A stretch of 64,000 nt of DNA from Minisyncoccota bacterium (GTDB lineage: Bacteria; Patescibacteriota; Minisyncoccia; Phycocordibacterales; UBA9973). Location of the stretch: contig JBBABV010000002.1 of assembly GCA_041657445.1 (NCBI GenBank), positions 3,364-67,363 on the forward strand. The letters are read 5' to 3'. Numbering within the stretch: the stretch's first letter is position 1; each line of letters opens with the position of its first letter. Shown here piece by piece: positions 1,096 to 45,229 of the stretch. The notes beneath the pieces are model-generated. The model saw only the letters and a list, made by a program, of their open reading frames with translations. It did not search any database and was not told where the DNA came from. The position numbers and the translations under genes are program-made.

Positions 1096-1097
1096 AT

Positions 1098-1712: not shown

Positions 1713-1715
1713 TCT

Positions 1716-2321: not shown

Positions 2322-2336
2322 ACTATAAAATAATTT

Positions 2337-7788: not shown

Positions 7789-7795
7789 AAACAAA

Positions 7796-7822
7796 AAACC
7801 ACCCAACAGGGTGATTTTTTGT
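7796..7822 (+). terminator. Rho-independent terminator of the his operon
   Basis: CCACCC-aaca-GGGTG hairpin followed by ATTTTTTG. Confidence 0.7.
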
Positions 7823-7900
7823 TCTGAATACTGCTCTCAGCAGGTATGCTATGACTGAATAGTTTCTTGAGTGGTTTCGACGCATCTCGTGCGGGATAAC

Positions 7901-7918
7901 CTAGCTCAAGCTGGCTGG
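7901..7918. repeat. Left direct repeat (att-like) of the integrated element: ctagctcaagCtggctgg
   Basis: 17/18 identical to 21539-21556 (ctagctcaagTtggctgg), which overlaps the tRNA-Gln 3' end. Confidence 0.65.
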
Positions 7919-7982
7919 CGTCCTTGAGCCAGAACCGTGGTCGGTCAAGCCCCGTAAGGACATTTTTAATACCTTTATTCTA

Positions 7983-8132
7983 TCATTTCGACGGTCTTTG
8001 AGCAGTAGGTTTTTTATACCGATCTGGATTCTGCTTTTTATCTTGCTCTAATAGCCATTGAAAGACTGCCACCACTCTATCGGTTTCTTCCTTAGTCCAA
8101 TTTTTAGGATTTCTTTTATCTTCTTGATTCAT
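7983..8132 (-). CDS. Small hypothetical protein (49 aa) at the island edge. Not in the ORF track because it is under 60 aa.
   Basis: ATG at 8132, TGA at 7983-7985. Translation: MNQEDKRNPKNWTKEETDRVVAVFQWLLEQDKKQNPDRYKKPTAQRPSK. Confidence 0.3.
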   Translation of the reverse strand: MNQEDKRNPKNWTKEETDRVVAVFQWLLEQDKKQNPDRYKKPTAQRPSK

Positions 8133-8177
8133 AAAAAGTGACAAAAGTGACACAGGTTTGAGTATAAAAGTTACAGA

Positions 8178-8792
8178 CTACTGCAACTTTTTAACCTCAA
8201 AAGAGCCTGTATTATTACGATCTCTGCCCGAGTAATACTCTGTTTGAAGTATTCCTTCATCTTCCAGTTTTGCAGATGCTGACCCCTCATGTATGTGCAT
8301 ACTTTCGGGAGCATTATCTTTTGGTTTGTTTCTGTATTGATAATGTATTCGAGCTGTTCCAAATTCATCAACATTCATTGATGCCTCAAAACTAAAAGAT
8401 TCTGATGTCTCTGTTTCTAGGTAAATCAGCATGTGTGTCCATGTTTGTTTGATACAAAATTTTTTTATCGGTATTGGACCATTAGCATGATTTGAATGAG
8501 AAGTTATATTTCCAGACCAGTTTCCATCTACGATAGGAGTTTTTATATTAGTAATTTTGCGAATAAAATTATTTCTCCACAACTTAGTCTCGAACCACTT
8601 ATGTAAAATTCCGTAAAAACCAATCACCGAAGGAGCCTCAACCCACCACGGAAGTGCAAAGATATTTTGTGAGAAAAGATATAAACCCCAGGCAAGCAAT
8701 ATAGACAATACCGCAAGGTAGAGCGATACATACTTGTGTTCTTCTGAATTTATTGAATATGGATGAATATTTTGCATAATTATTGATTCCAA
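8178..8792 (-). CDS. Putative CBASS effector: two N-terminal TM helices plus a C-terminal beta-rich domain (Cap15 / S-2TM-beta-like)
   Basis: 204 aa. Hydrophobic helices at residues ~22-42 and ~47-70, then a soluble ~130-aa domain. Overlaps the upstream NTase gene by 13 nt and is the last gene of the operon. Confidence 0.5.
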   Translation of the reverse strand: MESIIMQNIHPYSINSEEHKYVSLYLAVLSILLAWGLYLFSQNIFALPWWVEAPSVIGFYGILHKWFETKLWRNNFIRKITNIKTPIVDGNWSGNITSHSNHANGPIPIKKFCIKQTWTHMLIYLETETSESFSFEASMNVDEFGTARIHYQYRNKPKDNAPESMHIHEGSASAKLEDEGILQTEYYSGRDRNNTGSFEVKKLQ

Positions 8793-9703
8793 TTATCCCA
8801 AAGCTCTACAAAAGCACTGATAGTTTTTACTGCATCATCTTGATTCCATTGCTCCTCACTTTCACCAAATAATTCATGAAAATGGTTTTGACACACACAT
8901 TGACCAAGTGGCAATGCAGACCAGAGGTGTTTTAATACGGCGTGTACGGTCGTGGAATGATCACCAGCGAAATGTTCATCAGGGACATTGTAAACTAATG
9001 ACTGTAAGAAATACGATGGTGCTATACCATCGACAAGTTTACCTGTATCAACAAGATGATTTCTCATATTCTTGAAAATTCGTACTGTTGGCTTAAAGCG
9101 TCCACCTGTACGAGTATCTGAATTTTTATTAACTCCATTTTGATAGTGGTGCTCTGGATAATTTATAATTCCACGATTTGTTGTGCGATGATAGAACTTC
9201 ACACCCTCTTCTGCATTATGACTATTGGTACCATAAAAATAATTATATTTACGATAATTTATAACAGGAACAATATCAGCCTTTAATCTTCCTGAAGAAG
9301 GTTTGAGTTTAATTGATTTATTACCACTTGTATCAACGGACAGTAGTCCATAATATTTGGTTAGAGCAGAGATGACATCTCTGCGTAAATCTTGCCAATC
9401 ATAAACAGCACTACTGTATGTCTGGTCATGAGCATTTTTCTGATCATAAGGAAGTTCATGTGCATTATGACCAAATGTGGTTGTTAGTTCGACAACTACA
9501 TCAACATCGCTATCTGCTCGAATATTTGTATCATTTTTATACGATCCCTGGAGATAGATTTTTACCGAGCCATTATTGATACGATCTTTAAGTGGAGACT
9601 GATCGTGTGTTAGTGCAGTCCGGATAGATTCATGTGTTGTTTTTGCTGAAACAGTAGCACCTTGATTCGACCATGTTGTTAGTTGAGAGAGTGGAATTGC
9701 CAT
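8780..9703 (-). CDS. cGAS/DncV-like nucleotidyltransferase (CD-NTase, SMODS-type)
   Basis: Pol-beta NTase signature GSYKNDTNIRADSDVDVVV (GS...[DE]h[DE]h) and a later third acidic motif KADIVPV (hDhhP). 307 aa, typical CD-NTase size. The ATG lies 1 nt past the TGA of the upstream gene. Confidence 0.6.
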   Translation of the reverse strand: MAIPLSQLTTWSNQGATVSAKTTHESIRTALTHDQSPLKDRINNGSVKIYLQGSYKNDTNIRADSDVDVVVELTTTFGHNAHELPYDQKNAHDQTYSSAVYDWQDLRRDVISALTKYYGLLSVDTSGNKSIKLKPSSGRLKADIVPVINYRKYNYFYGTNSHNAEEGVKFYHRTTNRGIINYPEHHYQNGVNKNSDTRTGGRFKPTVRIFKNMRNHLVDTGKLVDGIAPSYFLQSLVYNVPDEHFAGDHSTTVHAVLKHLWSALPLGQCVCQNHFHELFGESEEQWNQDDAVKTISAFVELWDNWNQ

Positions 9704-9704
9704 A

Positions 9705-10649
9705 TCATTTAAATAGATTATCGATTTCAGCCGACCAATTATCGCTATGTATTATCCTATTTTTTTGATAGTTATTTTTAAGTATTTCTGCTTTGGTCAT
9801 TTGAGAAAGTACCTCCCAATCAGTACCTAACACATAAGTTGCATTACCATAATGCAAACTTTCAAGTAAATAAATACTTTTATCTTTATATCCAAACACA
9901 AGATACCCAGTAAAACCTCCCAACCCTATCGCTATTTGGTTAGGTTTATAAGATTCAATTTTCTTGAATCTGTCGGCTATCATTGCTTTTTCCCCAGTAG
10001 ATCTCTTTTCAATAATTTCTTTAACTCTTTCATTAACTTTACTCCAAGGATTTATTCCAGGGGGTAGTAACTCCCAGTTGAGTCTAATAATTTTAGTTTT
10101 AACTGGCAGAGTTAAATTTTCTTTGAAAATCTGGAACTCATCAAATATTTCAAAAAACAAATTCATTGCATGCTTAATATCAGCATATTCACTTTTTGCT
10201 TTTTTAAATTTCTTTGAAATAACTATTTTCTTTGCATCTTTTTCAGCAATTTGAAACTCCAAACTTGGAGGAGGAACCAATTCTCTTTGCCATCTTTCAT
10301 ATGGCATATAATTTACACCACTATGTTCGTAGCCACCCCAATCAGTTAACGTCCATTCTCTAGGATAATAAACTGTCTCTTTTGGTAGATCCTTTCTGGG
10401 ATTTTCTTTACCTTCTGCATTAAATTCTGAAACATTTCCAAATATTGCAGGAAGAACAGTCTCGCCGATATTAACATCTTTAGAGAAACCTATTTTTTTG
10501 AGCAAATTCATTAAACTATCAGTAACTTCTACACCAATATAAAAATCTTCATTATCTTTTATTAAGGATAAATATTTTTCAGGATTAACTACTCTCTTAT
10601 GTCTTTTCTTTGCCATAAATTTAATATAGATCACCAGGGAGCACAGCAA
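9705..10649 (-). CDS. Hypothetical protein (314 aa; an alternative start MAKKRHKR at 10616 gives 303 aa), sitting between the repressor and the CD-NTase
   Basis: Long ORF with no motif I recognise. Tightly coupled to the flanking genes (4-nt gap or 29-nt overlap upstream, 1-nt gap downstream). Confidence 0.6.
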   Translation of the reverse strand: MLCSLVIYIKFMAKKRHKRVVNPEKYLSLIKDNEDFYIGVEVTDSLMNLLKKIGFSKDVNIGETVLPAIFGNVSEFNAEGKENPRKDLPKETVYYPREWTLTDWGGYEHSGVNYMPYERWQRELVPPPSLEFQIAEKDAKKIVISKKFKKAKSEYADIKHAMNLFFEIFDEFQIFKENLTLPVKTKIIRLNWELLPPGINPWSKVNERVKEIIEKRSTGEKAMIADRFKKIESYKPNQIAIGLGGFTGYLVFGYKDKSIYLLESLHYGNATYVLGTDWEVLSQMTKAEILKNNYQKNRIIHSDNWSAEIDNLFK

Positions 10650-11268
10650 CGACTACTCCTTGTATGATGCAGTTATCTGTTAATATAATCGGCTTGTGGT
10701 TTTTGTTCGTTGACTTTGGTTGAAGTACAACAGCACCATTCGCTTTCTTAAACACTTTGACGGTTGCTTCGTCATTTATAAGAGCAACAACTTTATCGTT
10801 ATCTTCTGCTGTATCTTGCTGTCGAATCAAAAGCAGATCACCACTATTAATTCCTGCAAGATTCATTGAGTCTCCGATCGCACGCAAAAGAAAATATTTT
10901 GAACCCTTTTTAGCTAGTCCTGTTGATACAGGAATTAATGCTTGGATATTTTCTTCGGCAAGAACAGGTGCACCGCAAGTCACAGCACCTACCAAGGGCA
11001 CATCAACAGTGCTTATTGAAGCTGTTGTTTGTGATCCAGTAAGGATAAGTTGTCGCCCGATTTTCTTTATAAGTCCCGCATCGATTAGTCGATTAATTAC
11101 AAGACTCGCAGATCGTGGAGAAGCTCCACCTGTAACCTCATTAATCTCACTAAGCGTAGGGCTTTTGCCATAATGAACAATCTTGTTACGGATAAGGGCA
11201 AATGCTTTTTTATCTTTGTCGCTAAGGTTATTTGTCATGGTATAAATAGTATAAATTACTCTATACAA
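10621..11268 (-). CDS. LexA/CI-like repressor (wHTH plus S24 self-cleaving peptidase). The start at 11238 (MTNNLSD) is more likely.
   Basis: N-terminal winged-HTH region (...KSPTLSEINEVTGGASPRSASLVINRLIDAGLIKK). Cleavage-site-like VGAVTCGAP. S24 Ser/Lys context (LLRAIGDSMNLAGINSGDLLLI ... KVVALINDEATVKVF). Confidence 0.85.
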   Translation of the reverse strand: MYRVIYTIYTMTNNLSDKDKKAFALIRNKIVHYGKSPTLSEINEVTGGASPRSASLVINRLIDAGLIKKIGRQLILTGSQTTASISTVDVPLVGAVTCGAPVLAEENIQALIPVSTGLAKKGSKYFLLRAIGDSMNLAGINSGDLLLIRQQDTAEDNDKVVALINDEATVKVFKKANGAVVLQPKSTNKNHKPIILTDNCIIQGVVVAVLPGDLY

Positions 11269-11296
11269 AAAAGCAAGTATTTGCTATGATGTCTTT

Positions 11297-11920
11297 ATGA
11301 AAAATGACCAGAAAAAACCAATGACTGTCGGTGAACTGGTGGCAAAGATACATCCCCCTGTCTTGAGTGAGGGGCAGATTTCTCAATTCCAGGAAATCGG
11401 TAAAAGACATGCCGAAATGATTGAGAATGTGAGAAAGGTCGCTCAACCTATTATTGAACAAATGAATCGTGTTAGAGAACAGATAAAGATTTTTGAACCA
11501 GTAGAGTATCCTGAGATCGTATTTAATCGCCCTGTTGAGTATGACATTTTGGAAGAACTTCAAGAACTAAATAAAAACCACAAGCGACTTCTGTCCTCAG
11601 GCCAGGATAGCAATGTAATTATTTATGATACAAGAAACGGATCGCTCGACAGACATTTAGGCGGTAAACTTTTCTCATACGACCTCACTGAAAATGGAAA
11701 AAGAAAACAATTACTTGAAATACTTCTTGACCGTGGCACATATGTAAAAACAAAAGAACTTGAATCCATGCTTTCATCGCCAGCCATAGCAAAAATAGTT
11801 CAGACTTTTAATGACTATGCGATCAACACCCTAAGGCTTCCAAAGAAAACAAAACTCATTCAAGGAAAGAAAGGCTCTGGGTATCGTATCAATCCTAAAA
11901 TACACATAGAGAAAGAGTAA
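11297..11920 (+). CDS. Hypothetical protein with a C-terminal winged-helix (OmpR-like trans_reg_C-like) region, divergent from the repressor
   Basis: C-terminus ...LLEILLDRGTYVKTKELESML...GKKGSGYRINP resembles an OmpR/PhoB-family wing. 207 aa. Confidence 0.45.
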   Translation: MKNDQKKPMTVGELVAKIHPPVLSEGQISQFQEIGKRHAEMIENVRKVAQPIIEQMNRVREQIKIFEPVEYPEIVFNRPVEYDILEELQELNKNHKRLLSSGQDSNVIIYDTRNGSLDRHLGGKLFSYDLTENGKRKQLLEILLDRGTYVKTKELESMLSSPAIAKIVQTFNDYAINTLRLPKKTKLIQGKKGSGYRINPKIHIEKE

Positions 11921-12093
11921 ATTCCTAAGTTGACACCAAGTTGAGTGGATAACTTTGAAAAATCGCCTTTAAATAGGCGTTTTTTCTTTATGCTACTCAA
12001 TTTTATGCCAATTACATGCCTATGTACCTTTTTGATTTCATAGAGTTAGTAGATTAGTCATCTACAAATTTATAAGTAATCAAATAAAACTCT

Positions 12094-13371
12094 ATGAATA
12101 AAAAACCTTCATGGAAAACAGGAGTTCGAGAAGTCAAAGACTTACTCCCTTGGAAAGAAAATCCAAGAAAAATCTCACGGGTCGCTATGGAGAAATTAAA
12201 AGAGAAAATCATTCAAAGTGGTTTTCATAGTGTGATTGTCATTGATACAGACAACACCATTATCTCTGGCAACCAAAGAAAAACAGCTTTGATACAGCTC
12301 GGTATCAAACAAGTAAATGTATTAATCCCTGATCGCAAACTATCAGACGACGAACGTCGCAAGATTGCTATTGAAAGCAACATCAACGACGGTGAATGGG
12401 ATTTCGAAAAGCTTAAATCTTTTGATTTAGAGCTTTTACAATTTGCTGGATTCAACGAAAAAGAATTGGTTAAGTTTTGGGACGAAGAAAAGGATTCCAA
12501 AGATGATAAATTCGATGTCGATAAAGAGTTAAAGAAAATAAAAACACCACAAACGAAACCTGGCGACCTCATTGTTATGGGCGGTCATAAGTTGTTGTGT
12601 GCTAGTTCTACCGATATGAATGCTGTCACCAAACTATTCGGAAATGATAAAGCTACCGCTATCTATAATGACCCACCTTTTAATATCGGACTCTCATACG
12701 ATAAAGGTGTGGGCAATAAATCTAACTATGGAGGTACCTTTGACGACAATCAATCACCTGAAGAATACAAAGAATTTATTCGCAAGGTTCTAAAATCTTC
12801 ACTAGCCGTATCTAATAAGGACGTACACGTCGCTTTCTGGTGTGATGAAGCCTGGGTGTGGGTTTTTCAAACGCTCTATATGGAAAATGGAGTTAAGAAC
12901 CGAAGACTTAATGTCTGGATCAAAAACAATTCGTCGCCGACACCTACTGTTGCGTTCAATAAGTGTCTTGAGTATTGCGTGTATGGCACGAAAGGATATC
13001 CATATATTTCTGATCTCGTAAAAAATCTCAACGAAGTACAAAACAAAGACTACGGAACTGGCAATCAACTTCTCGAAGATATCTCAAATATCTGGGCAAC
13101 AAAACGACTACCTGCGAATCAAATGGAGCATGCGACGAGTAAAAATCCTGAATTACACCATAAGTTTATTATGCGTTGTACCAAGCCAGGAGACATCATT
13201 TTTGATGCCTTCTCTGGATCTGCTAGCACTATGATCTGTGCGGAACAACTTGGTCGAAAGGTTTATTCCCTAGAAATAGAACCTGTGTTTTGTGATTTAG
13301 CAATTCGTCGTTATGAAAAATTAACTGGTCACAAGGCACAAGTAATCAAGAATTTCTATGAAAAAGAATAA
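12094..13371 (+). CDS. ParB-like nuclease domain fused to a beta-class N6-adenine/N4-cytosine DNA methyltransferase (phage-type)
   Basis: N-terminal ParB/Srx motif (KENPRKISRVAMEKL...ISGNQRKTA). Motif IV IYNDPPFNIG precedes motif I IIFDAFSGSAST, the beta-class order. Confidence 0.8.
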   Translation: MNKKPSWKTGVREVKDLLPWKENPRKISRVAMEKLKEKIIQSGFHSVIVIDTDNTIISGNQRKTALIQLGIKQVNVLIPDRKLSDDERRKIAIESNINDGEWDFEKLKSFDLELLQFAGFNEKELVKFWDEEKDSKDDKFDVDKELKKIKTPQTKPGDLIVMGGHKLLCASSTDMNAVTKLFGNDKATAIYNDPPFNIGLSYDKGVGNKSNYGGTFDDNQSPEEYKEFIRKVLKSSLAVSNKDVHVAFWCDEAWVWVFQTLYMENGVKNRRLNVWIKNNSSPTPTVAFNKCLEYCVYGTKGYPYISDLVKNLNEVQNKDYGTGNQLLEDISNIWATKRLPANQMEHATSKNPELHHKFIMRCTKPGDIIFDAFSGSASTMICAEQLGRKVYSLEIEPVFCDLAIRRYEKLTGHKAQVIKNFYEKE

Positions 13372-13765
13372 ATTTCAAGATCAGTTCCTTGATGAACTAC
13401 GGAAAGTGCCGATCGTTCAAGTGGCATGCGAGAAGACAGGATTGTCTCGCAATAGTGTCTATCGTTGGCGAAAAGATGATAAAGAATTTATCAAGAAAAT
13501 GGATGGTGCACTTTCTGAAGGTGTCGCTTTGGTAAATGACATGAGTGAGAGCCAACTACTCACTCTTATTAAAGAGAAAAACTATCCTGCGATTAGTTTT
13601 TGGCTTCGTCACCGAAATGATAATTACAAGAACAAACTTGAAATTACTACCAAGGATGACAATGAAGAACTGACACCGTCACAAGCAAAAATCGTAAAAC
13701 AAGCACTCAAACTCGCAAAAATTACCAAGTCGAAATCTATTAAAAACATTAATCGTAAAAAATAA
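13358..13765 (+). CDS. Terminase small subunit-like HTH protein
   Basis: 135 aa with an N-terminal HTH (VACEKTGLSRNSVYRWRK). Overlaps the upstream gene and sits immediately before terL. Confidence 0.5.
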   Translation: MKKNKFQDQFLDELRKVPIVQVACEKTGLSRNSVYRWRKDDKEFIKKMDGALSEGVALVNDMSESQLLTLIKEKNYPAISFWLRHRNDNYKNKLEITTKDDNEELTPSQAKIVKQALKLAKITKSKSIKNINRKK

Positions 13766-13767
13766 TT

Positions 13768-15264
13768 ATGACTAAAATAATTTCAAAAGCACTGGTTAAT
13801 ACGATGATAAAAGATCGTTCAGTGCGAACATCAATTACAAAAGATAGTTTCCTGTACTTTTTCCACTTCTACTATGCACACTATGTGAAATACGAAACGG
13901 CAGACTTCCAAAAAGAGATTATTCATAATCTCGAAAAGAGCACCACTGAAAACTTATATGTGGTGGCGTTTCGTGGATCTGGAAAATCCACCATGGTGAC
14001 AACTGCATATCCGATTTGGGCAATCCTCGGAAAACAGCAAAAGAAGTTTTGTATTATCTTTTGCCAAACACGAGCACAGGCAAAACAACACATGATGAAT
14101 ATTCGTACAGAGCTTGAGGGTAACGATGTACTTAAAAAAGACCTCGGACCATTCCAAGAAGAAAGCGATGAATGGGGTTCATTCTCCCTTGTATTCAAGA
14201 AGCACGGAGCAAGAATTACCGTAGCTTCTGCCGAGCAAAGTATTCGTGGTATTCGCCACAACGAACACCGCCCAGATTTAATAATCTGTGACGATGTTGA
14301 AGATGTGCAATCAACCAAAACTCGTGAAGGTCGAGAAAAGACTTATAACTGGCTCCGTGGTGAAGTTATACCTGCTGGTGATAGGAATACTCGACTAATC
14401 ATTGTCGGAAACTTACTCCATGAAGATTCGCTGTTAATGCGAATAAAAGACGAGATTGCTAAAGGTAAAGCAAAAGGAATATTTAAAGAGTATCCGTTGA
14501 TTGATAAGAATGGTGTGTGCTTATGGTCTGGAAAATATGCAACAGAAAAAGATCTTGAAGATGAGAAGTTAAAAGTTGCCAGTGAAATATCTTGGCAACG
14601 AGAATATTTACTTCGTATTATTCCGAGCGATGATCAAGTTATCTACCCAGAGTGGATTCAATTTTATGATGAACTGCCAGGAGAAAAACATCGTGGCTAT
14701 CGTGGTACTTATGCAGGCGTAGATCTTGCTATATCAGCGTCAGAAACTGCCGATGATACTGCTGTGGTGTTTGCTCACATTTATTCACGCCGTGAGAAAT
14801 TGCGAATCTACATACTACCTAACCCTATTGCAAAGAAACTTAACTTTCCTGCACAGGTAGATCTCATGAAAGATATTCGTAACACACTACTCACAAGAAG
14901 TTCTGATGAATTATTTGTTGAAAGTGTTGCGTATCAAGAAGCTCTACCTCAAATGCTCGAACATCATGGTGTTAAGGCTACAGCAATTAAACCCAAAGGA
15001 GATAAGCGAACAAGACTAGCTCTTACTTCGACTGCAATAAAATCAGCAAAGATTTTATTCCCAAGAGAAGGATGTGAAAGACTTATCGAGCAATTGGTCG
15101 GATTCGGTGTTGAAAAGCATGACGACTTAGCAGATGCATTTTCTCTCTTGATCAACTCAACCATGGACAAGCATTCGGGAGAATCAACATGGCTTATGTA
15201 CTGGATGGGAGACGATGAACCTTTGTACTTTAGGGATTATGTAGATATGGATCAAAAAAAGTAG
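13768..15264 (+). CDS. Phage terminase large subunit (ATPase plus RNase H-like nuclease)
   Basis: Walker A VVAFRGSGKST, Walker B LIICDDVED, and a C-terminal nuclease region GVDLAISASETADDTAVVFAH. Confidence 0.8.
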   Translation: MTKIISKALVNTMIKDRSVRTSITKDSFLYFFHFYYAHYVKYETADFQKEIIHNLEKSTTENLYVVAFRGSGKSTMVTTAYPIWAILGKQQKKFCIIFCQTRAQAKQHMMNIRTELEGNDVLKKDLGPFQEESDEWGSFSLVFKKHGARITVASAEQSIRGIRHNEHRPDLIICDDVEDVQSTKTREGREKTYNWLRGEVIPAGDRNTRLIIVGNLLHEDSLLMRIKDEIAKGKAKGIFKEYPLIDKNGVCLWSGKYATEKDLEDEKLKVASEISWQREYLLRIIPSDDQVIYPEWIQFYDELPGEKHRGYRGTYAGVDLAISASETADDTAVVFAHIYSRREKLRIYILPNPIAKKLNFPAQVDLMKDIRNTLLTRSSDELFVESVAYQEALPQMLEHHGVKATAIKPKGDKRTRLALTSTAIKSAKILFPREGCERLIEQLVGFGVEKHDDLADAFSLLINSTMDKHSGESTWLMYWMGDDEPLYFRDYVDMDQKK

Positions 15265-16656
15265 TTGCGAGTATGCAATATTTCGCTAGTTCTGCATAGA
15301 CTTAGCAAAACGCTCAAATTGCGTCATCAATATAATATGGAGACGCAATATATAAGCAATTTAGGAGTAAGAACAGAGGTACCAAAAACCAAGATTCGGT
15401 ATGTCCTGTATGCTCGAAAATCAACTGAATCGGACGAAAAACAAGCCTTGTCTATTGAATCACAAGTTAAGGAAATGCTTGCTATCGCCGACCGTGATAG
15501 CTTAACGGTTGTTGATATTAGACGTGAATCTCACTCGGCTAAAGAATCTGGTCAACGACCAGTATTTAGAGAGGTATTAGAGGATGTAAGGCGTGGTAGG
15601 TATAACGGCATACTCACCTGGGCCCCTGATCGTCTATCGAGAAACGCTGGTGATCTGGGATCAGTAGTTGACCTTATGGACGAGACGAAACTTCTTGAAA
15701 TAAGAACATACGGACAACACTTCAAAAATTCTCCCAATGAGAAGTTTCTTTTGATGATCCTGTGTTCACAAGCCAAACTCGAAAACGATAATAAAAGTAT
15801 CAATGTAAAACGAGGGCTACGAACAAGATGTGAAATGGGGCTTCGTCCAGGTCCTGCTGTAGTTGGATATCTCAACGAAAAACGAATGGATAAAAAATGT
15901 GAGGTTGTTATAGATCCAGAACGAGCACCAATAGTTAAACAAATGTTTGAAAAAGTGGCATACGAAAAGTGGTCAGGAAGAAAACTCTACCACTGGCTAA
16001 AATTTGATCTAAACTTCAAAACTCGAAGTGGCAACAAAGGTCTTACTCTTAGTAACATTTATCTCATACTTCAAAACCCATTTTATTATGGGGTTTTTGA
16101 ATATCCTCGAAAGAGTGGAAATTTTTATACAGGAAAACACGAACCGATAATCAATAAAGAACTTTTTGATCTGGTTCAAGAGCAAACAAAAAGCCAAGTA
16201 CTACGGACCCAAGAACCAAAAGAATTTGCTTTTACAAAAATGATGACATGTGGACTTTGTGGATCGGGAATCTGTGCAGATGAAAAGTTTAAAAAGTTAA
16301 AAGACGGATCAGTGAATAGACATATATATTATGGATGTACGAGATCAAAGGATAAAAATTGTAAGTGTGGGTATATAAACGAAAGTGAACTAATACAACA
16401 ATTTGAAAAGCTGATTGATCAAGTAAATATCAATGAGATTGGAATGAAAGAGAAGATTAAATATGAGGTTGAGCGAATAAAACGCTTTAATCAATCTGTA
16501 TTAAATACAAAACAACAGATACAAATAAAAGACGTAGACATTAGAGACTACGCCAAATTTATTTTAAAAGACGGCTTGATTGAAGAGAAGCGAGAATTAT
16601 TAACTTGTTTTAAGAGTAAGATTATATTGAAAAATAAAATAGTTTCAATTAATTGA
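15265..16656 (+). CDS. Large serine recombinase (integrase). The start at 15337 (METQYISNLG) is more likely.
   Basis: Catalytic YARKSTESDEKQ (YxRxSTxxQ) resolvase domain, then a recombinase domain, then a Cys-rich zinc-ribbon (CGLCGSG...YYGCTRSKDKNCKCG). Confidence 0.85.
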   Translation: MRVCNISLVLHRLSKTLKLRHQYNMETQYISNLGVRTEVPKTKIRYVLYARKSTESDEKQALSIESQVKEMLAIADRDSLTVVDIRRESHSAKESGQRPVFREVLEDVRRGRYNGILTWAPDRLSRNAGDLGSVVDLMDETKLLEIRTYGQHFKNSPNEKFLLMILCSQAKLENDNKSINVKRGLRTRCEMGLRPGPAVVGYLNEKRMDKKCEVVIDPERAPIVKQMFEKVAYEKWSGRKLYHWLKFDLNFKTRSGNKGLTLSNIYLILQNPFYYGVFEYPRKSGNFYTGKHEPIINKELFDLVQEQTKSQVLRTQEPKEFAFTKMMTCGLCGSGICADEKFKKLKDGSVNRHIYYGCTRSKDKNCKCGYINESELIQQFEKLIDQVNINEIGMKEKIKYEVERIKRFNQSVLNTKQQIQIKDVDIRDYAKFILKDGLIEEKRELLTCFKSKIILKNKIVSIN

Positions 16657-19435
16657 ATTTAGAAATATACTTTTCAAGCGCAGATAACATGTCTTTTACA
16701 GACAATTTATCTTTTGGTGAAGATCCAACTATATGATCTATGTATTTTGGTTTTTTAAGCTCTGTTAGTATGTTTGCACTTTCGTTACCCTTCGCAGAAT
16801 GATGATATATTTGTGCTGTAATAATTAAGTTATATTTACTTTGACCTCTTTTAAGCCCAGAGAACACATCAGAGCTTTTTAATTTTGAGTTTGATATAAA
16901 TTGAATATCCCAATCATTTGCCCCAAGTCCGTATTTAGTAAAGTACTTTCTTGTATCTTTTAATATCAAATCATCATCAACAGTTTCTCCGATAATACAT
17001 ACATTAAAAGGTTTTGGGAGTTTAACATCCTGATCTTCTAAAATAGAAGATTCTTCTTTTAGCATCAATTTTGCATTATCTAGGTCTATTTTGAGTATTT
17101 CTTTTTCAGTTTCAATATCTTTAATCTTCTTTATGGCCTGATTAAGTTCTTCTTCATATAAATCTAACAATTCTTGATCTTCTTTAGATTCTGCTTTCGT
17201 TGCCTTAGATACAACTTTTCTACTTTGCGAAAAACGAATCAAGTCGTACTCATATTTTGAAGAAAAAGTATCTAAGCTTTGCTCGTTTAGACTATGGAAA
17301 AAATTTATATAATCCCTCGGTGAAAGAATGAAGAAAAGGATATTATCTTTACCTTTATACTTCTCAACATAAGCTTTCCCAGCATTAAGTTTTAGTAGGT
17401 TTTCATTTTTAAAATCCTTATCATCTTTTATCTCGACAATAATGGTTTCTTTCTTTGTCTTTAGGATAAAATCTGGATAAAAGCCATAGAGTGCATCTTC
17501 TCCACTTTTTGGATTTTGTTTTTTATAAGGTATTCCAAAAAATTTACTCTCTCTTTCTCCATTTTTAAACCACCAAACTAAATAATCTTCTGATGATTCA
17601 AGCTTAGACACAAACTTGTTTTCAGGTTTTGATATAGTAAGTCTTGAATTTTTATCTTTTTTTAAATAGTAAGGAGACATTATAGACTTTTGTATATCTA
17701 CTTGTTCTTCAAAATCATTAAATACGCTTATATCTTCGGGGATTTGCCAATTACTATTCTCGACAATAGTATCTTGTTGGGTTGGGAGATTCGCGTATTT
17801 ATTTTTTGCAAGATCAATCAATTCCTCTATCTCTGTCTTATTTTTATCTCTTATAACTATGTTCGCGATTTGATCTTCGTCATCTATTTTAAATAGAGTT
17901 ATAAAAAGTGCCCTCAAATGACTTTTCAAAGTATTGGTTGAGTCTGATTTTGCATAAGGAACAGTGCAAGATTCTAAAAATCTATTATAAGAATCAAAGA
18001 CTTCTTCTCTATTTTTTTCGATTTCAATTTCACTCTTAAAATCAATATCTTTTCTTTTTTCATCGATAGTTTTTGCAGAACCACCGACACCCACAACTTT
18101 TTTGTAAGTAGCGATACTGGTCACCAACTTCTTTTTTGTATTTAATTCTTCAGCCGAATCAAAAAGACATTTTTTGAAAGGAGCCTGCAGGCGAGTTATT
18201 TCTCGTTTCCGTCTTATTTGCGCACTAGGCAAATCAATATTTCTATATTTTGTATTATCTCTCAACATTGTTGCGCTACTTGCATAATCTTTAGCAATAT
18301 CTTCAACTATCGTAAAGTTATCAGAAGCTGTAAATACATAACCAAAATTTAAATCTTCACAAGATTCGTAATGCTTTTGTTCTGGCATACGCATAATACG
18401 CCCCAATGTTTGAACATTAAACTCATAGTTTTCAGAGTTCCATTCCTTTTGAAGTAAAAGTATAGAAGCTCTAGGGCAATCCCACCCAAGAGCAATAGCG
18501 TCTTTAAAAATTAAAACTTCGATCTCGCTTGTATTCTCACGGACATTAAAAAGATGGTCTTTATCTTCTTGGTTTAAATAAATTCCTAACTTTCCTGCAT
18601 CTTTTGTAATACCGAATTTAGATAAAACATCAATAATTTTTTCTTCAGGAGGTCTTTGTCCTTTTTTAGCATCAGGAATTTGTATTAATAAAAGAGGATT
18701 AATTTTTAAACCTAATTTTTCATAACTAGCTTTTAATTGTTTTCTTTTTTGTAATGCTACGTTTACAATATCTTCATTATTTTTTACAAAATCCTTTTTA
18801 AGCCCGTAGTTTATCTTTACTTCTTTTTTTATCATTCCTTCAGCAACAACCTCTTCAATCTTTATCTTTATAGGTATTCCACTTATATCTTTTGGTGTGG
18901 CCGACATTTCAATAGTTAAATCTGGTTCGATGATAGACAGTACCTCTTTTGCTTTAGAGGTTTTTGCAGAGTGATGACTCTCGTCAATAATTAATACAAT
19001 TTTTCTACCCTCATCTTTTGTATTTGAAATTATTTTAGATAAGTTCCAATCATCCTCGTTTTCAACCATGAAAAGATTTCCCTCACGATTCAAACTCTGC
19101 CAATTTATAAATAAGATTTGATTTTCCTCTAAAACATTTCCAACAATATCTCTTGCTTCAACACACTCCAAAAGACGATCATTTTCAAAGTGAAGTTCTA
19201 AGCTTTCGCTACTTTGTCTATGTAGATTATTTACAGAAATCCACACAAAAGAAAGAGTCTCTTTTGACTGTAATTCTTTTACGATACGAATCATTGATTC
19301 GGCCATCATTGTTGTTTTCCCTGAACCGGTTGGAGCTTGAAATATGAGAGTTTGAGGGTCAGAGTCACTTAAATAAGTAACGGAATGGTTTACTATTTTT
19401 GCTATTGCTTTTTGTTGATAAATTAATTGTTTCAT
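16649..19435 (-). CDS. res: Type III restriction enzyme Res subunit (SF2 helicase plus endonuclease)
   Basis: Helicase motif I FQAPTGSGKT and motif II LIIDESHH. 928 aa. Overlaps the upstream mod gene by 4 nt. Confidence 0.8.
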   Translation of the reverse strand: MKQLIYQQKAIAKIVNHSVTYLSDSDPQTLIFQAPTGSGKTTMMAESMIRIVKELQSKETLSFVWISVNNLHRQSSESLELHFENDRLLECVEARDIVGNVLEENQILFINWQSLNREGNLFMVENEDDWNLSKIISNTKDEGRKIVLIIDESHHSAKTSKAKEVLSIIEPDLTIEMSATPKDISGIPIKIKIEEVVAEGMIKKEVKINYGLKKDFVKNNEDIVNVALQKRKQLKASYEKLGLKINPLLLIQIPDAKKGQRPPEEKIIDVLSKFGITKDAGKLGIYLNQEDKDHLFNVRENTSEIEVLIFKDAIALGWDCPRASILLLQKEWNSENYEFNVQTLGRIMRMPEQKHYESCEDLNFGYVFTASDNFTIVEDIAKDYASSATMLRDNTKYRNIDLPSAQIRRKREITRLQAPFKKCLFDSAEELNTKKKLVTSIATYKKVVGVGGSAKTIDEKRKDIDFKSEIEIEKNREEVFDSYNRFLESCTVPYAKSDSTNTLKSHLRALFITLFKIDDEDQIANIVIRDKNKTEIEELIDLAKNKYANLPTQQDTIVENSNWQIPEDISVFNDFEEQVDIQKSIMSPYYLKKDKNSRLTISKPENKFVSKLESSEDYLVWWFKNGERESKFFGIPYKKQNPKSGEDALYGFYPDFILKTKKETIIVEIKDDKDFKNENLLKLNAGKAYVEKYKGKDNILFFILSPRDYINFFHSLNEQSLDTFSSKYEYDLIRFSQSRKVVSKATKAESKEDQELLDLYEEELNQAIKKIKDIETEKEILKIDLDNAKLMLKEESSILEDQDVKLPKPFNVCIIGETVDDDLILKDTRKYFTKYGLGANDWDIQFISNSKLKSSDVFSGLKRGQSKYNLIITAQIYHHSAKGNESANILTELKKPKYIDHIVGSSPKDKLSVKDMLSALEKYISKFN

Positions 19436-21234
19436 ATCTCTTTTGGTTTATATAGTTCCTTAAAAATTTTGCGATATACATTCAGGATAACTTCAGGGAT
19501 TGGTTTTATTTTTACCTTTGGTATATCTTCAAAATCTGATTCATCGACCGTATGATCATAACTAAATATATAAATACTGATAATTTTTTTATTCTTCTTT
19601 AAAACCTTTTTTGCCTCCTCGATTTCATTTTCATCAAAAATTATCATCGTTGCCTTATCTATTGATTCATAAAGTGCAAAATCTTTATTTGAAATTATCT
19701 TATCGAATGTTTCCTCTGAAAGACAAAGCATTTCTACTGCTTTTCTAACGAAATCCCTCTTGTCTTTATCTGTTTTAATTTTGTCTATGAATTCTGTCTT
19801 GAAAAATCTTAAATTACCTCCTAATCCTTTCTTTTTTCCATATCCATTAATTACATTTATAATTCTAGGGTACAAAACAGTTGTCATTATTTTATGAGAG
19901 CCGTTTTCGTCTTTATCATTTGTACATAGAATAAATTTTCTTTTTTGTCCATCTTTTTCATTTAAATTTAATACCGCGTGCCCTGTCGAACCAGATCCAG
20001 CAAAAAAATCCAAAATAGTTGCATTTTCGTAAGGGTAAAGAGAGAACATTCTTTCCAGGAAAGCTATAGGTTTTTTACTTCTGAATTTTACTCCTCCTTC
20101 AGATGAGAGTCCTTGCCAAGTAAGATCATCCCAAAGAGTTCCTGCTTTTTCTTGTTTTATTAACTTATCGCCAATTTTTTGAGTTGTATCACTGAGCCAA
20201 TTTACTAAATCACATTTCAAATAATAATTTGTCGCAATTGTACCTTTATTTTTCCCACTTCTTGGCGTGTATTCAATAGAATACAAGTCTCTAGAATTTT
20301 CTGTTGCTGTATTTACTCTAGTTCGAATAGATGATTGGGCTGGTTGAAGTCTAAAAATCTTATCTAAATGGTTTAAGTAAACCTCTTTCTCTGTGCAATT
20401 ATTTTCTTTAGCAAAAGCTTTTAAAGTTAAAACCTTATATTTAGCATGTTTGTATATTTTTATATCCTTACCACTACCATCTTTTATTACTTTATATAGT
20501 TTTTTAGATCCCAAATCTTTTAGAACACTTTTATACTCAAAAGATTTTCCATCTTCCTCTTTTTCATCGATGATATCAAAAAGATTTCTTTTAATATAAA
20601 CAGGTTGGTATTTAAAAAAGTTTCTATTTTTTGCATAAAAAAGTAAAAATTCTATATTTTTCTTTAGTTTTTTATCTTCTCCACCTCCACTAGCGCCAGA
20701 AGATGTTTTTGTTTTTACTGTTATACAATTAATAAAATTTTCACGACCGAATATTTCATCCATTAAAATCTTTAATTGTGCAAATTCGTTTTCATCAATA
20801 CTTACAAACATAAAACCTGTATCTTTCAACAATCGTTTAGAAAGAAGAAGTCTCTTTTGCATGAAAGATAACCATTTTGAATGACGGTAATGATCTTCTG
20901 TATCAATAAATTTATCATTGTACATAAAATCTTTATCTCCAGTATTATAAGGTGGGTCAATGTAGATTATGTCTATCTTTTTTTTATGAGTATAATTTAA
21001 AACAGATAAAGATTCATAATTATCACCCTGTATTAAAATATTTGTCTCACCATTGTTATTCAAAATAGACTTTTTTTCATCATAAGAAATCACGGGTAAC
21101 ATTTGTTTGCATTTTTCAGCAACATCTTCATCTTTTGGTTCCCAAACAATTCCAAATTTTTTACGCTTTAATAACAAGTCCACATAGTGAACCAATTTAT
21201 CTTTAGACCATTCGTGATGAGGTTTCTTTTTCAT
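19432..21234 (-). CDS. mod: Type III R-M Mod subunit (beta-class N6-adenine DNA methyltransferase)
   Basis: Motif IV IYIDPPYNTG precedes motif I ILDFFAGSGSTGHAV. 600 aa. Immediately upstream of res. Confidence 0.8.
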   Translation of the reverse strand: MKKKPHHEWSKDKLVHYVDLLLKRKKFGIVWEPKDEDVAEKCKQMLPVISYDEKKSILNNNGETNILIQGDNYESLSVLNYTHKKKIDIIYIDPPYNTGDKDFMYNDKFIDTEDHYRHSKWLSFMQKRLLLSKRLLKDTGFMFVSIDENEFAQLKILMDEIFGRENFINCITVKTKTSSGASGGGEDKKLKKNIEFLLFYAKNRNFFKYQPVYIKRNLFDIIDEKEEDGKSFEYKSVLKDLGSKKLYKVIKDGSGKDIKIYKHAKYKVLTLKAFAKENNCTEKEVYLNHLDKIFRLQPAQSSIRTRVNTATENSRDLYSIEYTPRSGKNKGTIATNYYLKCDLVNWLSDTTQKIGDKLIKQEKAGTLWDDLTWQGLSSEGGVKFRSKKPIAFLERMFSLYPYENATILDFFAGSGSTGHAVLNLNEKDGQKRKFILCTNDKDENGSHKIMTTVLYPRIINVINGYGKKKGLGGNLRFFKTEFIDKIKTDKDKRDFVRKAVEMLCLSEETFDKIISNKDFALYESIDKATMIIFDENEIEEAKKVLKKNKKIISIYIFSYDHTVDESDFEDIPKVKIKPIPEVILNVYRKIFKELYKPKEI

Positions 21235-21236
21235 AG

Positions 21237-21443
21237 TTATTTCAAAAGTTCGTTAGTAGATACACCCAACACCTTAGCTAAGCTAGTAATGGTTGAAAGA
21301 GTCGGATTGTTTTTTCCGTTCTCGATATTGCTCACAAAAGATCGATCAACGCCCAATATTCTGGCGAGTTCTATTTGGCTAATATCTTTTTTGATCCTAA
21401 GTTTTTTGAGATTTTCTCCCAACTTTTTGGCATCATCTTTCAT
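21237..21443 (-). CDS. XRE-family HTH regulator (controller-like) upstream of mod. The track ORF extends to 21491; the start at 21443 (MKDDAKK) is more likely.
   Basis: HTH_3 motif LKKLRIKKDISQIELARILGVDRSFVSNIENGK. Confidence 0.7.
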   Translation of the reverse strand: MKDDAKKLGENLKKLRIKKDISQIELARILGVDRSFVSNIENGKNNPTLSTITSLAKVLGVSTNELLK

Positions 21444-21485
21444 AAAAAGATTATAGCACACTTTGTTGTAATATAAAACAACAAA

Positions 21486-21514
21486 AAACACCTTCGTAAA
21501 TGAAAGTGTTTTTT
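21486..21514 (-). terminator. Hairpin with flanking T/A runs; the likely terminator downstream of tRNA-Gln
   Basis: ACACCTTC-gtaaat-GAAAGTGT with T-runs on both sides. Confidence 0.5.
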
Positions 21515-21538
21515 GTTTGTAAACTAGCTATCTTTGAG

Positions 21539-21556
21539 CTAGCTCAAGTTGGCTGG
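21539..21556. repeat. Right direct repeat (att-like): ctagctcaagTtggctgg. Its last 7 nt are the 3' end of tRNA-Gln.
   Basis: 17/18 identical to 7901-7918. Confidence 0.65.
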
Positions 21557-21623
21557 GAGACTAGGACTCGAACCTAGATAAATGGATCCAGAATCCATGG
21601 TCCTACCATTAGACGATCTCCCA
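21550..21623 (-). tRNA. tRNA-Gln (anticodon CUG), CCA encoded
   Basis: Acceptor UGGGAGA/UCUCCCA with U1-A72. Anticodon stem AUGGA/UCCAU, loop UUCUGGA. T-arm CUAGG-UUCGAGU-CCUAG. Confidence 0.85.
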
Positions 21624-21914
21624 ATGATTATCATTGCCCTTCCTAACAATAGTACAAAAAGGGGTTTTTATCAAATATTGCACAGGGTTAGTATACAATT
21701 GACACTAGATAGGAATGAAAACAAACCACATATTACGATTGGACAGTACACAATTTTGCCCATTAATACTAAAAACTTAACTCCATATGTGTATATACAT
21801 TATCCACACCCTCCTTGACAATAATGTTAGAAAAATATAACATTAGGTATTTGGTAAATGCCTTTCTAACTTTTAAAAAGAGCATCATTATAAAAAAATA
21901 ACAAGCATAACAAA

Positions 21915-22376
21915 ATGTCAAAAAAACAATTCAAGATCATTCAAATATGTATTGCAGTTATACTCGCATTGATATTTAGTCAATCAATTATTTTAGAGAA
22001 CTATTTCATCCCTATCATTGCTGTTCTAATAGGTCTTGGGCTACTCTTGTGGCTAAAAACAAAAGTAAAAGATGTGTTAGCAGATGAGAGAGATTGGCAA
22101 ATAGGAGGAAAATCAGCAATCCTTTCTCTTCAAATCTTCTCCGGAGTGATGGTGCCAATAATCTTCGTCCTCTACATCTTAAAAGATACCAATCCTACCT
22201 TTGAACCAATCGCTATGGCTTTATCATTCTCAGTCGTTTTCATTATGCTTCTTTACTCTTTGATATTTACATATCTTTCAAAGTATAAATTTGGTGACAA
22301 GAAATCCTTTTACTTGTCGCTTGCTGTATTTATTTTACTCATTTCATTTCTACTTGGTATGAGATTCATAAAATGA
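21915..22376 (+). CDS. Small multi-TM membrane protein (DUF2178-like partner of an XRE regulator)
   Basis: 153 aa with ~4 hydrophobic helices. Overlaps the downstream XRE gene. Confidence 0.6.
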
Positions 22377-22567
22377 AAAACAACATCAAAGAATTAAGAA
22401 ACAAAGCAAAACTGACCCAAGAAGAACTTGCTTATATAGTGGGAGTAAGAAGAGAAACGATCCTCTTCCTTGAACAAGGAAAATACAATCCTTCTCTTCG
22501 GCTTGCCTATGATATATCAAAGGTTTTCAAGATGAGTATTGAAGAGGTTTTTTCATTTAAGAAATAA
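22373..22567 (+). CDS. XRE-family HTH transcriptional regulator
   Basis: [39 protein letters not shown]. Confidence 0.8.
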
Positions 22568-45069: not shown

Positions 45070-45143
45070 TTATTTACTGTGTCGACGCCAGGATTTGCAC
45101 CTGGGACCTGCACTTTATGAGTGTGCCGCTCTAACTACCTGAG
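45070..45143 (-). tRNA. tRNA with a CAU anticodon (elongator Met, or Ile2/lysidine type)
   Basis: Acceptor GUCGGCG/CGUCGAC, D-arm GCUC-AGGUAGUU-GAGC, anticodon loop CUCAUAA, T-arm CCAGG-UGCAAAU-CCUGG. Confidence 0.75.
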
Positions 45144-45229
45144 CTACGCCGACATACTAAAACCTTATTAAATATAACTTAAGAAAGTTTTGTTTGCAAA
45201 TAATGAAAAAAATGTATATACTGCAACAT

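Follow-up and report, generated by a model that had tools for sequence, protein, structure and literature searches.

A family of small integrative elements in Patescibacteria that carry a terminase, a large serine recombinase and exchangeable defence genes at tRNA-Gln

Here we describe an integrative element in a 64,000-nucleotide stretch of DNA from a Minisyncoccota bacterium (contig JBBABV010000002.1, positions 3,364 to 67,363 of the forward strand; hereafter the window, whose own numbering is used throughout). A mobile island of 13.6 kb sits in the window at the end of a tRNA-Gln gene, and comparison with relatives identifies the region from about 7914 to 21549 as a member of a family of small mobile elements of the integrative kind, present across the Patescibacteria, in which a conserved backbone is combined with two slots of cargo. 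In the best reading available to us, the element probably follows a satellite-like cycle, in which a terminase of its own packages it into the capsids of a helper phage. The family is very widespread and apparently undescribed; no description of it was found in the literature searched, where the coverage of subscription journals was incomplete, and novelty is not proven thereby.

The relatives, which are referred to by locus number, were recovered by exact-protein and homology look-ups. The backbone runs from a LexA-like repressor of the S24 family, through a divergent winged-helix protein, a ParB-methyltransferase and the small and large terminase subunits (TerS and TerL), to a large serine recombinase (Table 1), and was found also in L013, L014-L018, L024-L032 and L037, the copies ranging in size from 11.5 kb to at least 20 kb. 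In L011, an NCBI metagenome contig, the nucleotide identity to the window is 98.5% over 9709-16660 (the gene for a 303-residue protein through the recombinase gene) and 95.8% over 21232-21631 (a helix-turn-helix (HTH) gene, the right end and the tRNA). The two copies part exactly at the stop codon of the recombinase, at the 3' end of the HTH gene and at the end of the 303-residue protein gene, and L011 has a gene for a 752-residue protein in the place of the cyclic oligonucleotide-based antiphage signalling system (CBASS) of the window, and a Type IIG enzyme with an SNF2 helicase in the place of its Type III restriction-modification (R-M) system. Such identity of the backbone beside different tRNA-Gln genes points to recent horizontal spread.

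Slot 1 lies downstream of the repressor and is co-oriented with it, and slot 2 is enclosed by the recombinase stop codon on one side and by the conserved HTH gene, together with its promoter, on the other. Comparison of the loci shows that the cargo of the two slots has been exchanged between otherwise near-identical copies. For example, L028 (a 281-kb contig) has a CBASS pair, a DUF2188 gene replacing that of the 303-residue protein, and Type IIG/SNF2 cargo, L037 (a 169-kb contig) has Thoeris in slot 1, L024-L027 combine a caspase gene at left with copper/metal-resistance genes at right, and L031 has an AriA/PtuA-like ATPase on the left and Type III R-M with SNF2 on the right. In L018, whose TerL is only 51% identical, the left-hand cargo is GmrSD with DUF2779 and the right-hand cargo a Mokosh-like helicase with a reverse transcriptase, and L013 and L014 harbor extra cargo between terL and the recombinase gene. 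L023 and both elements of L033/L034 (JGI contig Ga0620614_000016, 772 kb) keep the methyltransferase, TerS and the recombinase and are without terL; of the latter two, one carries Gabija and the other DUF6119, Shedu and a Type I R-M system, with a GIY-YIG gene or a gene for a 140-residue protein at the place of terL.

The ratio of non-synonymous to synonymous substitution rates (dN/dS) is 0.01-0.09 for the S24 repressor, the winged-helix regulator, the methyltransferase, TerS, TerL and the recombinase (0.03-0.09 for TerL and 0.014 for the recombinase), and the backbone is evidently under strong purifying selection. Homologues of TerL form more than 3,363 clusters, the best 120 of which are 77-97% identical and come from named Patescibacteria lineages, and those of the recombinase form more than 8,000; the names borne by these homologues are Paceibacterota, Moraniibacteriota, Colwellbacteria and Patescibacteria. 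The closest TerL of cultured phages, found in Mu-like phages, has an identity of only 27%. Among the relatives, the reduced gene set is found again and again in copies with TerL identities of 51-100%, with the recombinase directly after terL.

Table 1. Features of the element and of its borders, in window coordinates
Feature	Position	Strand	Basis or remark
Terminator hairpin (7800-7813 and T-run), then motif GTTCTGAATACTGCTCTCAGCAGGTATGC (7821-7849); right-end module of upstream element E1, outside the element	7789-7849	+	
Left 18-bp repeat CTAGCTCAAGCTGGCTGG	7901-7918	+	Sequence match
Conserved left end, P' arm and adjoining DNA, GCTGGCGTCCTTGAGCCAGAACCGTGGTCGGTCAAGCCCCGTAAGGAC...	7914-8004	+	88-92% identical in relatives
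orf56, 49 residues from its ATG, at the extreme left end	7983-8132	-	Conservation
Invariant 18-nt motif AAGTGACAAAAGTGACAC, two GTGACA units	8136-8153	+	Exact matches in relatives
Cap15-type 2TM CBASS effector, slot 1, probable start 8777	8178-8792	-	Cap15_CD_rec 3.7e-26; Cap15_TM; PADLOC 2TM 8.6e-57
CD-NTase (CBASS cyclase), slot 1	8780-9703	-	PADLOC cyclase PDLC00788 3.9e-106; GS...DSDVD motif
303-residue protein, no annotation, directly downstream of the repressor	9705-10616	-	Many-phyla family
LexA/CI-like S24 repressor, 205 residues, winged HTH N-terminus	10621-11238	-	Peptidase_S24 1e-26; LexA_DNA_bind; phrog_4
Divergent control region, 58 nt, between repressor and rightward operon	11239-11296	.	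Palindrome; extended -10-like sequence
207-residue regulator, N-terminal coiled coil and C-terminal OmpR/PhoB-type winged helix (predicted)	11297-11920	+	AlphaFold2 (AF2), Foldseek
ParB-N domain fused to N6/N4 DNA methyltransferase	12094-13371	+	N6_N4_Mtase 2.8e-28; phrog_498 2.8e-71; phrog_620 (ParB-like) 8e-21
TerS	13358-13765	+	phrog_4044 2.4e-9; phrog_4102; N-terminal HTH matches
TerL	13768-15264	+	phrog_38 1.8e-78; PDB terminase 8dgc 2.6e-5
Large serine recombinase, 439 residues	15337-16656	+	Resolvase PF00239, Recombinase PF07508, Zn_ribbon_recom PF13408; phrog_95 integrase 3.6e-61
Type III Res, 928 residues, slot 2	16649-19435	-	ResIII 1e-21; PADLOC REase_III 1.3e-12
Type III Mod methyltransferase, 600 residues, slot 2	19432-21234	-	N6_N4_Mtase 1.4e-33; PADLOC MTase_III 1.1e-73
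XRE-type HTH regulator, 68 residues, heads slot 2	21237-21443	-	HTH_3 7.7e-19
Right end: bidirectional terminator hairpin (21480-21517) and P arm TAGCTATCTTTGAGCTAGCTCAAGT (21525-21549)	21480-21549	+	Terminator scan; arm comparison
Right 18-bp repeat CTAGCTCAAGTTGGCTGG	21539-21556	+	Holds GCTG common to all junctions
tRNA-Gln(CUG), integration target, gene intact	21550-21623	-	ARAGORN; Rfam tRNA 60.7 bits

The ends of the element are conserved beside differing host DNA. The left end is conserved (Table 1) in L011, L024-27, L028, L033, L034 (two copies) and L037, the host flanks of which are unrelated, and the left arm GCTGGCGTCCTTGAGCCAGAACCGTGGTCGG... is kept, for example, where its neighbour is a DUF817 gene (L028) or the terminator of tmk (L037). 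At the other end, the P arm is identical, and stands directly beside the tRNA-Gln gene, at five different tRNA-Gln genes (the window, L011, L028, L033 and L037). These ends bear out an earlier, sequence-only reading of this DNA, which had proposed a bounded element integrated at tRNA-Gln, and they place it at the 3' end of that gene. That reading had also described 18-bp direct repeats at the borders, the right one overlapping the end of the tRNA gene; both are present at the positions it gave and are the only matches to the repeat in the window at up to 3 mismatches, about 0.03 being expected by chance. Only the last 7 nucleotides (nt) of the tRNA-Gln sequence (..CCAGCCA) fall inside the right repeat.

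The 18-bp repeat did not prove to be the recombination core. In the clean single insertions L028 and L037, the left and right attachment sites (attL and attR) share GCTG only, plus 0-3 flanking nt. In L028, attL reads ..CCGTTCAAA/GCTG/GCGTCC and attR ..CAAGTTG/GCTG/CGGGAC, and in L037 they read ..TTTTTGTTT/GCTG/GCGTCC and ..CAAGTTG/GCTG/CGAGAC, respectively. The shared GCTG corresponds in the window to 21552-21555, that is, to about positions 71-74 of the tRNA, and comparison of the junctions shows that copies with a recombinase of the window type are located at the extreme 3' end of tRNA-Gln genes. A core of about 4 bp, as read from these junctions, fits the prediction for a serine integrase and not that for a tyrosine integrase. 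Crossover by serine recombinases requires a non-palindromic dinucleotide, and CT or TG within GCTG is thus the likely crossover point. The attachment site of the free element can be reconstructed as ..GAGCTAGCTCAAGTTG GCTGGCGTCCTTGAGCC.., with the full junction presumably of the form ...CTATCTTTGAGCTAGCTCAAGTTGGCTGGCGTCCTTGAGCCAGAACC.... More distant recombinases of the family lie beside tRNA-Glu (L013, with a 13-bp repeat GACCCTTGTCGAG) and tRNA-Asp (L017).

The longer repeat of the window results from a tandem array, in which the right arm of a first element, GCTG and the left arm of a second follow one another. To the left of the element, a terminator hairpin and the motif GTTCTGAATACTGCTCTCAGCAGGTATGC are followed, about 50 nt beyond the motif, by ..CCTAGCTCAAGCTG. 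In L023, a serine recombinase gene is immediately followed by the same terminator and motif, with 56 nt left to a tRNA-Gln gene, which the right end abuts; the pair also occurs upstream of the L011 copy. The location in L023 identifies the hisAF-terminator region of the window as the right end of a related element, here termed E1. The left repeat is accordingly the junction of the inner right arm of E1 (P arm, ..CCTAGCTCAAGCTG) with the P' arm of the element (GCTGGCG..). A junction of this form (CTCTTTGAGCGCCGCTCATATTT/GCTGGCGTCC) also joins elements A and B of L033/L034, which are arranged head to tail ahead of tRNA-Gln(UUG). Comparison of these loci thus shows a tandem array in which the element takes the second place and the right end of a relative precedes it. 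The empty site had been predicted to consist of the hisAF terminator, a single repeat and tRNA-Gln; such a sequence would instead be formed by the right end of E1 and the tRNA adjoining it, and a site free of the element is reconstructed as ...GCGGGATAACCTAGCTCAAGCTGGCTGGGAGACTAGGACTCG....

The region upstream of the element holds a complete his operon (hisZ-G-IE-D-C-B-H-AF, with a HisA-HisF fusion; window 1-7913 and, upstream of it, L001 1-2107). The Logan contig L001 is 100% identical to window 1-7850 and ends exactly at 7850, which fits a branch of the assembly graph at the end of a multi-copy element. Its order is a recombinase gene (product 74% identical to the recombinase of the element), 42 nt, a Trp-repressor-like gene, the his operon, and the terminator with the motif. 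Given the recombinase and Trp-repressor-like genes on one side and the canonical right end on the other, the his operon may be cargo of E1 as a second mobile element, much as metal-resistance genes are cargo in L024; a mobile his operon, if true, would be unusual for bacteria of the Candidate Phyla Radiation (CPR). The left border (7789-7913) could be either a solo relic of the right end of a former element or the end of an intact upstream E1 comprising the recombinase, the Trp-repressor-like gene and the his operon cargo, and any preference between the two is tentative. No left end of E1 was seen in L001, and the open reading frame (ORF) upstream of the E1 recombinase is not a terminase gene, both of which favor a relic, whereas the layout of L001 is that of the recombinase with plus-strand metal-resistance cargo in L024, and the truncated his operon of L002 again adjoins a recombinase island, as would suit an intact E1; the sequence up to the limit of L001 decides for neither. 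In L002, only a HisH remnant and hisAF are left of the operon, and the recombinase island lies at a tRNA-Ser gene. In L003, HisD, HisC, HisB and HisH are 80-85% identical and HisAF only 64%.

Two other interpretations of the conserved left end were considered and rejected. As a non-coding RNA it has no Rfam match, and the conserved 81 nt fold no better than shuffled sequences (z -0.8 and +0.7); we therefore favor a protein-binding site as the probable nature of this DNA. As a tRNA fragment it has, by eye, TGGCTGG...GAACC in common with tRNA-Gln, but no T arm is possible, and the likeness is read as a probable half-site similarity.

The genes named by the sequence-only reading (repressor, terS, terL, serine recombinase and ParB-methyltransferase) were all recovered in their places by Pfam, PHROG and PADLOC models, and PADLOC and Pfam likewise recognize the CBASS-like and Type III R-M cargo that it had recorded. 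In the repressor, the Cys-Gly site (VTCG/AP), the GDSM serine and the VK lysine are visible in the sequence and intact, and its gene is the first of a leftward operon that also contains slot 1. The S24 repressor is kept in L011, L013, L024, L028, L031 and L037. A role as a CBASS-specific regulator, by analogy with CapH/CapP, was rejected, since the cargo that follows this repressor in L011, L013, L024, L031 and L037 is unrelated. The divergent winged-helix partner, which had been postulated as well, agrees with the predicted structure of the 207-residue regulator (AF2 pLDDT 89), the C-terminal 100 residues of which match the DNA-binding domains of CovR, PhoP, VanR and ArlR in Foldseek with probabilities of 0.97-1.0, indicative of an OmpR/PhoB-type fold; in L024 and L031 an unrelated protein of 135-138 residues occupies its position. 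The ParB-N methyltransferase fusion is kept in all loci of the family, and so is TerS, the loci without terL included. TerL retains, on inspection of the sequence, its Walker A (GSGKST) and Walker B (LIICDD) motifs and its nuclease aspartates, and the recombinase, whose start was set from the called genes in L011 and L012, has the catalytic serine motif YARKSTES.

The HTH gene that heads slot 2 is preceded by a strong promoter-like site (21477-21450; promoter scan) and is 89-96% identical in nucleotide sequence in L011, L028 and L037, where it stands ahead of different cargo (Type IIG and SNF2). It was considered as the controller (C) protein of the R-M system itself and, being kept ahead of different cargo, is instead counted as a gene of the element's framework. 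At the left end, orf56 is 98% identical in L011, 89% in L028 and 68% in L034 and is also present in L037; it has no Pfam or PHROG match, and from its position we guess that it could be a recombination directionality factor. The motif AAGTGACAAAAGTGACAC occurs once per element and is exact in L011, L013, L028, L029, L031, L032, L033 and L034 despite unrelated surroundings; it lies just inside the left end even in L013, where the recombinase is only 58% identical and orf56 is absent. It is a putative cis element that might act in recombination as an accessory site, as an operator or as a pac site.

Searches with Pfam, PHROGs and PADLOC found no gene for capsid, portal, tail, lysis or replication functions among the ORFs of the element, and none of these ORFs has a primase, helicase or Rep domain. 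The absence of capsid, portal and tail genes had been recorded, with the caveat that structural genes just outside the window might make this a full prophage; neither structural phage genes nor replication genes were found in any family locus examined, within 8-10 kb of any locus including the flanks of the element, or in the 169-281 kb contigs of relatives. The left flank is the his operon, and the right flank is tRNA-Gln followed by DUF2178, ABC transporter, CorA and two-component genes. With housekeeping flanks and without structural, lysis or replication genes, the element is not a full prophage. Just to the right of tRNA-Gln, a DUF2178 membrane protein is encoded together with a 64-residue HTH protein (21915-22567), the latter being 38-42% identical to the HTH protein of the element.

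In slot 1 of the window, the CD-NTase and its effector are without ancillary genes (no Cap2/Cap3 or HORMA/TRIP13 genes were found at the locus), and the system is thus a type I CBASS. The 303-residue protein encoded ahead of it belongs to an uncharacterised family that extends across many phyla at about 40-46% identity, and its predicted fold has two domains, modelled with confidence and with no clear solved relative. A homologue in Chitinophaga (L035, 6001-6909) is encoded close to a HEPN ApeA gene, in an island with an integrase at its flank. L011 and L031 encode the 303-residue protein, or a homologue 28% identical to it, followed by a protein of 645-752 residues, and the two are candidates for a new defence gene or gene pair. 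In slot 2, Mod and Res are encoded in one operon, as expected of a Type III R-M system. The nuclease region of Res is marked only by a weak match to TnsA-like endonucleases (residues 630-692), and its C-terminal extension of about 230 residues has no family match. The G+C content falls to about 0.29 over the R-M block (about 0.29-0.31 in Res).

The divergent control region downstream of neither operon but shared by both starts holds a palindrome, AGCAAGTATTTGCT, and an extended -10-like sequence, TGCTATGAT, 7 nt before the ATG. The same extended -10-like TGCTAT(A/G)AT is found about 7 nt before the ATG of the 207-residue regulator gene (11282-11316) and, in inverted orientation, of the HTH gene (21424-21458), which suggests leaderless transcripts under common control; orf56 (8114-8138) has in common with them only the short leader just before its ATG. 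A terminator-like hairpin (11964-11985; terminator scan) follows the gene for the 207-residue regulator and precedes the block of methyltransferase, TerS, TerL and recombinase genes. This separation suggests a cascade of early and late expression.

For the life cycle, we infer all the steps that follow integration. In the integrated state, the repressor would shut off the rightward operon while being co-transcribed with slot 1 (the 303-residue protein gene and the type I CBASS), as lambda cI is with rexAB, and the promoter of the HTH gene would drive the Type III R-M system of slot 2; the host would gain defence from the expression of both slots. DNA damage or phage infection would lead to self-cleavage of the repressor of the RecA-dependent type, upon whose loss the winged-helix protein, the methyltransferase, TerS, TerL and the recombinase would be expressed. 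The element would then be excised by the recombinase, to which orf56 might lend directionality, and the TerS-TerL pair of the element would package it into procapsids from a helper phage of the same host. Packaging would spread the element and compete with the helper phage, as would befit a satellite with a complete terminase and neither capsid nor replication genes.

Several observations weigh against this cycle. No helper phage was found, the closest TerL from cultured phages being the distant one mentioned above, and the element has no replication module, which is usual in known satellites. The relatives without terL (L023, L033 and L034) show that TerL is not indispensable to the family. 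The roles proposed for orf56 and for the GTGACA motif are guesses. A search of IMG/VR for circular or concatemer junctions with the pattern GAGCTAGCTCAAG N2-6 GCTGGCGTCCTTGAGC gave nothing. Exact-protein look-ups of HisAF and DUF2178 yielded only occupied or truncated contigs (from two sequencing runs), and a scan of genome collections with HisAF yielded relatives with different neighbourhoods and no tRNA-Gln; no empty site was thus retrieved in these look-ups. Serine integrases do not normally target attL or attR, and the formation of tandem arrays is not accounted for.

The relatives without terL would also suit a different, rather unlikely account, that of an integrative defence island moved by its serine recombinase and generic gene transfer, in which TerS-TerL would sabotage or misdirect the packaging of invading phages instead of packaging the element itself. 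Most of the cargo is indeed anti-phage defence, there is neither a replication module nor an identified pac site, and defences that target packaging are known (10.1101/2025.02.27.640495). However, a TerS and a TerL with intact ATPase and nuclease motifs, encoded in one operon with the recombinase under an SOS-type switch, are what self-packaging would need, and the 98.5% identity of backbones beside different tRNA-Gln genes speaks of recent horizontal spread. Less probable still is that the element supplies packaging and integration to a split or dispersed virus-like system that has its genes for capsid and tail elsewhere in the chromosome, as in a gene-transfer-agent-like system or with a co-occurring resident helper prophage. 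The 77-97% identity of TerL (best 120) across several Patescibacteria lineages would fit a fixed portal partner, and the inspection for structural genes covered the neighbourhoods of the elements, not whole genomes, but the elements have att-type ends with unrelated host genes adjoining, their cargo and position vary as in an autonomous mobile element, and no structural genes lie within 8-10 kb at any locus. A decayed prophage remnant with deleted structural genes, its repeats being a conserved intergenic motif, is very improbable, for although a repressor, a terminase and an integrase without structural genes and a left repeat within sequence conserved elsewhere might suggest it, the recurrence of the same reduced backbone across genomes (TerL identities 51-100%, recombinase directly after terL) under strong purifying selection (dN/dS 0.01-0.09), the precise ends kept beside five tRNA-Gln genes and the sharp boundaries of cargo exchange contradict it.

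The satellite-like cycle invites comparison with known satellites, first of all with phage-inducible chromosomal islands (PICIs), as defined after de Sousa et al. 2023 (PMC10085698). The element resembles a PICI in being a small island (about 10-15 kb) with an integrase, repressor-type regulation, its own TerS and accessory or defence genes, without tail or lysis genes, and presumably dependent on a helper phage. It differs from PICIs in its integrase (a large serine recombinase, against a tyrosine recombinase), in its regulators (an S24 LexA-like repressor and a winged helix, against Stl, AlpA or MerR), in having neither primase-replicase nor capsid-morphogenesis gene, in encoding TerL and the ParB-methyltransferase, and in its Patescibacteria host. 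Thus it has the site-specific integrase at one end and the terS of a PICI but neither an alpA/merR/stl-homologous regulation module (the only AlpA-like match is a weak one, on TerS) nor a primase-replicase module, and with its different regulators and TerL it falls outside the PICI definition. SatelliteFinder counts tyrosine and serine integrases as exchangeable. As in capsid-forming PICIs (cfPICIs), both TerS and TerL are encoded and packaging specificity would be owned by the satellite; cfPICIs, however, encode a major capsid protein, protease, portal and head-tail adaptor or connector, none of which is present in the element or its flanks, and the element, while having the terL of a cfPICI, falls outside that definition for want of capsid, portal and connector. 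The label satellite/PICI-like given to the element by the sequence-only reading therefore stands in part: terS, terL, an integrase and the absence of structural genes agree with it, whereas the definitions of PICI and cfPICI do not apply and a satellite nature is what we infer. The recombinase, with Resolvase, Recombinase and zinc-ribbon domains and very short attL/attR identity, has the marks of a serine integrase, and the capsid, portal, tail and lysis genes that an intact temperate prophage has between its att sites are missing.

The PICI-like element (PLE) of Vibrio cholerae integrates by a large serine recombinase. Our element is similar to PLE in general features, as a presumed satellite with such a recombinase that would manipulate helper packaging. 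PLE uses the TerL of its helper and inhibits it with Gpi (PMC11417361). In contrast, the element brings its own TerL. PLE further possesses a module for replication, and its targets of integration are integron repeats and not tRNA genes. Fixed positions with interchangeable defence, and cargo co-transcribed with the maintenance repressor, recall the P4/P2 hotspots and lambda cI-rexAB; the element differs from the hotspots in backbone, integrase type and host phylum, and has two slots, one per end. Rousset et al. are said to have described, in 2022, such defence hotspots in P4-like satellites and P2-like phages. Staphylococcal cassette chromosome (SCC) elements integrate in staphylococci by Ccr large serine recombinases at the 3' end of rlmH and carry mostly resistance cargo. 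They are likewise serine-recombinase islands at the 3' end of a conserved gene, forming tandem arrays with imperfect direct repeats of about 15-18 bp, but they are without a terminase or a repressor switch, and their target is rlmH, not a tRNA. The tycheposons of Prochlorococcus (bioRxiv 10.1101/2020.12.28.424599) are similar in targeting tRNA genes in streamlined genomes, in their tandem arrays and in their adaptive cargo; a PICI-like subset has terS or a capsid gene, and a minority use large serine recombinases. Unlike the element, tycheposons have mostly tyrosine recombinases with replication genes, and no backbone of TerS, TerL and ParB-methyltransferase has been described in them.

The CPR, or Patescibacteria, make up a large share of bacterial diversity; they are mostly uncultured, with tiny genomes, and their means of gene exchange are poorly known. 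It may be, though we lean somewhat against it, that the family constitutes a new class of phage satellite specific to these bacteria, which has TerS, TerL and a serine integrase, has neither capsid nor replication genes, is located at tRNA 3' ends in tandem arrays, and serves as the main vehicle for the exchange of defence and metabolic operons. If so, a satellite that encodes an entire terminase and yet no capsid would widen the known range of satellite strategies and imply an unknown group of helper phages infecting CPR bacteria, and bacteria with minimal genomes would have a main vehicle for defence and metabolic operons, such as the his operon here (probably on the neighbouring element) and copper/metal resistance elsewhere. 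With clusters of TerL and of the recombinase numbering in the thousands, at about 80% identity in several lineages, the family would be a major unnoticed route by which anti-phage defence, and possibly also genes of metabolism, move between these bacteria. Both cargo slots could be searched for new defence genes, such as those of the 303-residue protein and its partners of 645-752 residues, and the att sites of the recombinases, readable from natural junctions, are useful for genome engineering.

The host itself is a Patescibacteria (Nomurabacteria-like) bacterium, its HisAF being 86% identical to a protein from a Candidatus Nomurabacteria metagenome-assembled genome. Elsewhere in the window, the 23S rRNA gene is split by insertions (Rfam matches at 60241-61157 and 62106-64000, with a 5S rRNA gene at 57927-58034), an interrupted 23S rRNA gene being typical of the CPR, and ORFs for LAGLIDADG homing endonucleases lie at 58854-59525 and 61302-61778, both on the minus strand. 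A group I intron match (63 bits; 45252-45468, plus strand) lies about 100 nt from a tRNA-Met gene (45079-45153, minus strand); ARAGORN reports no host gene for it, and it may interrupt an undetected tRNA or some other gene.

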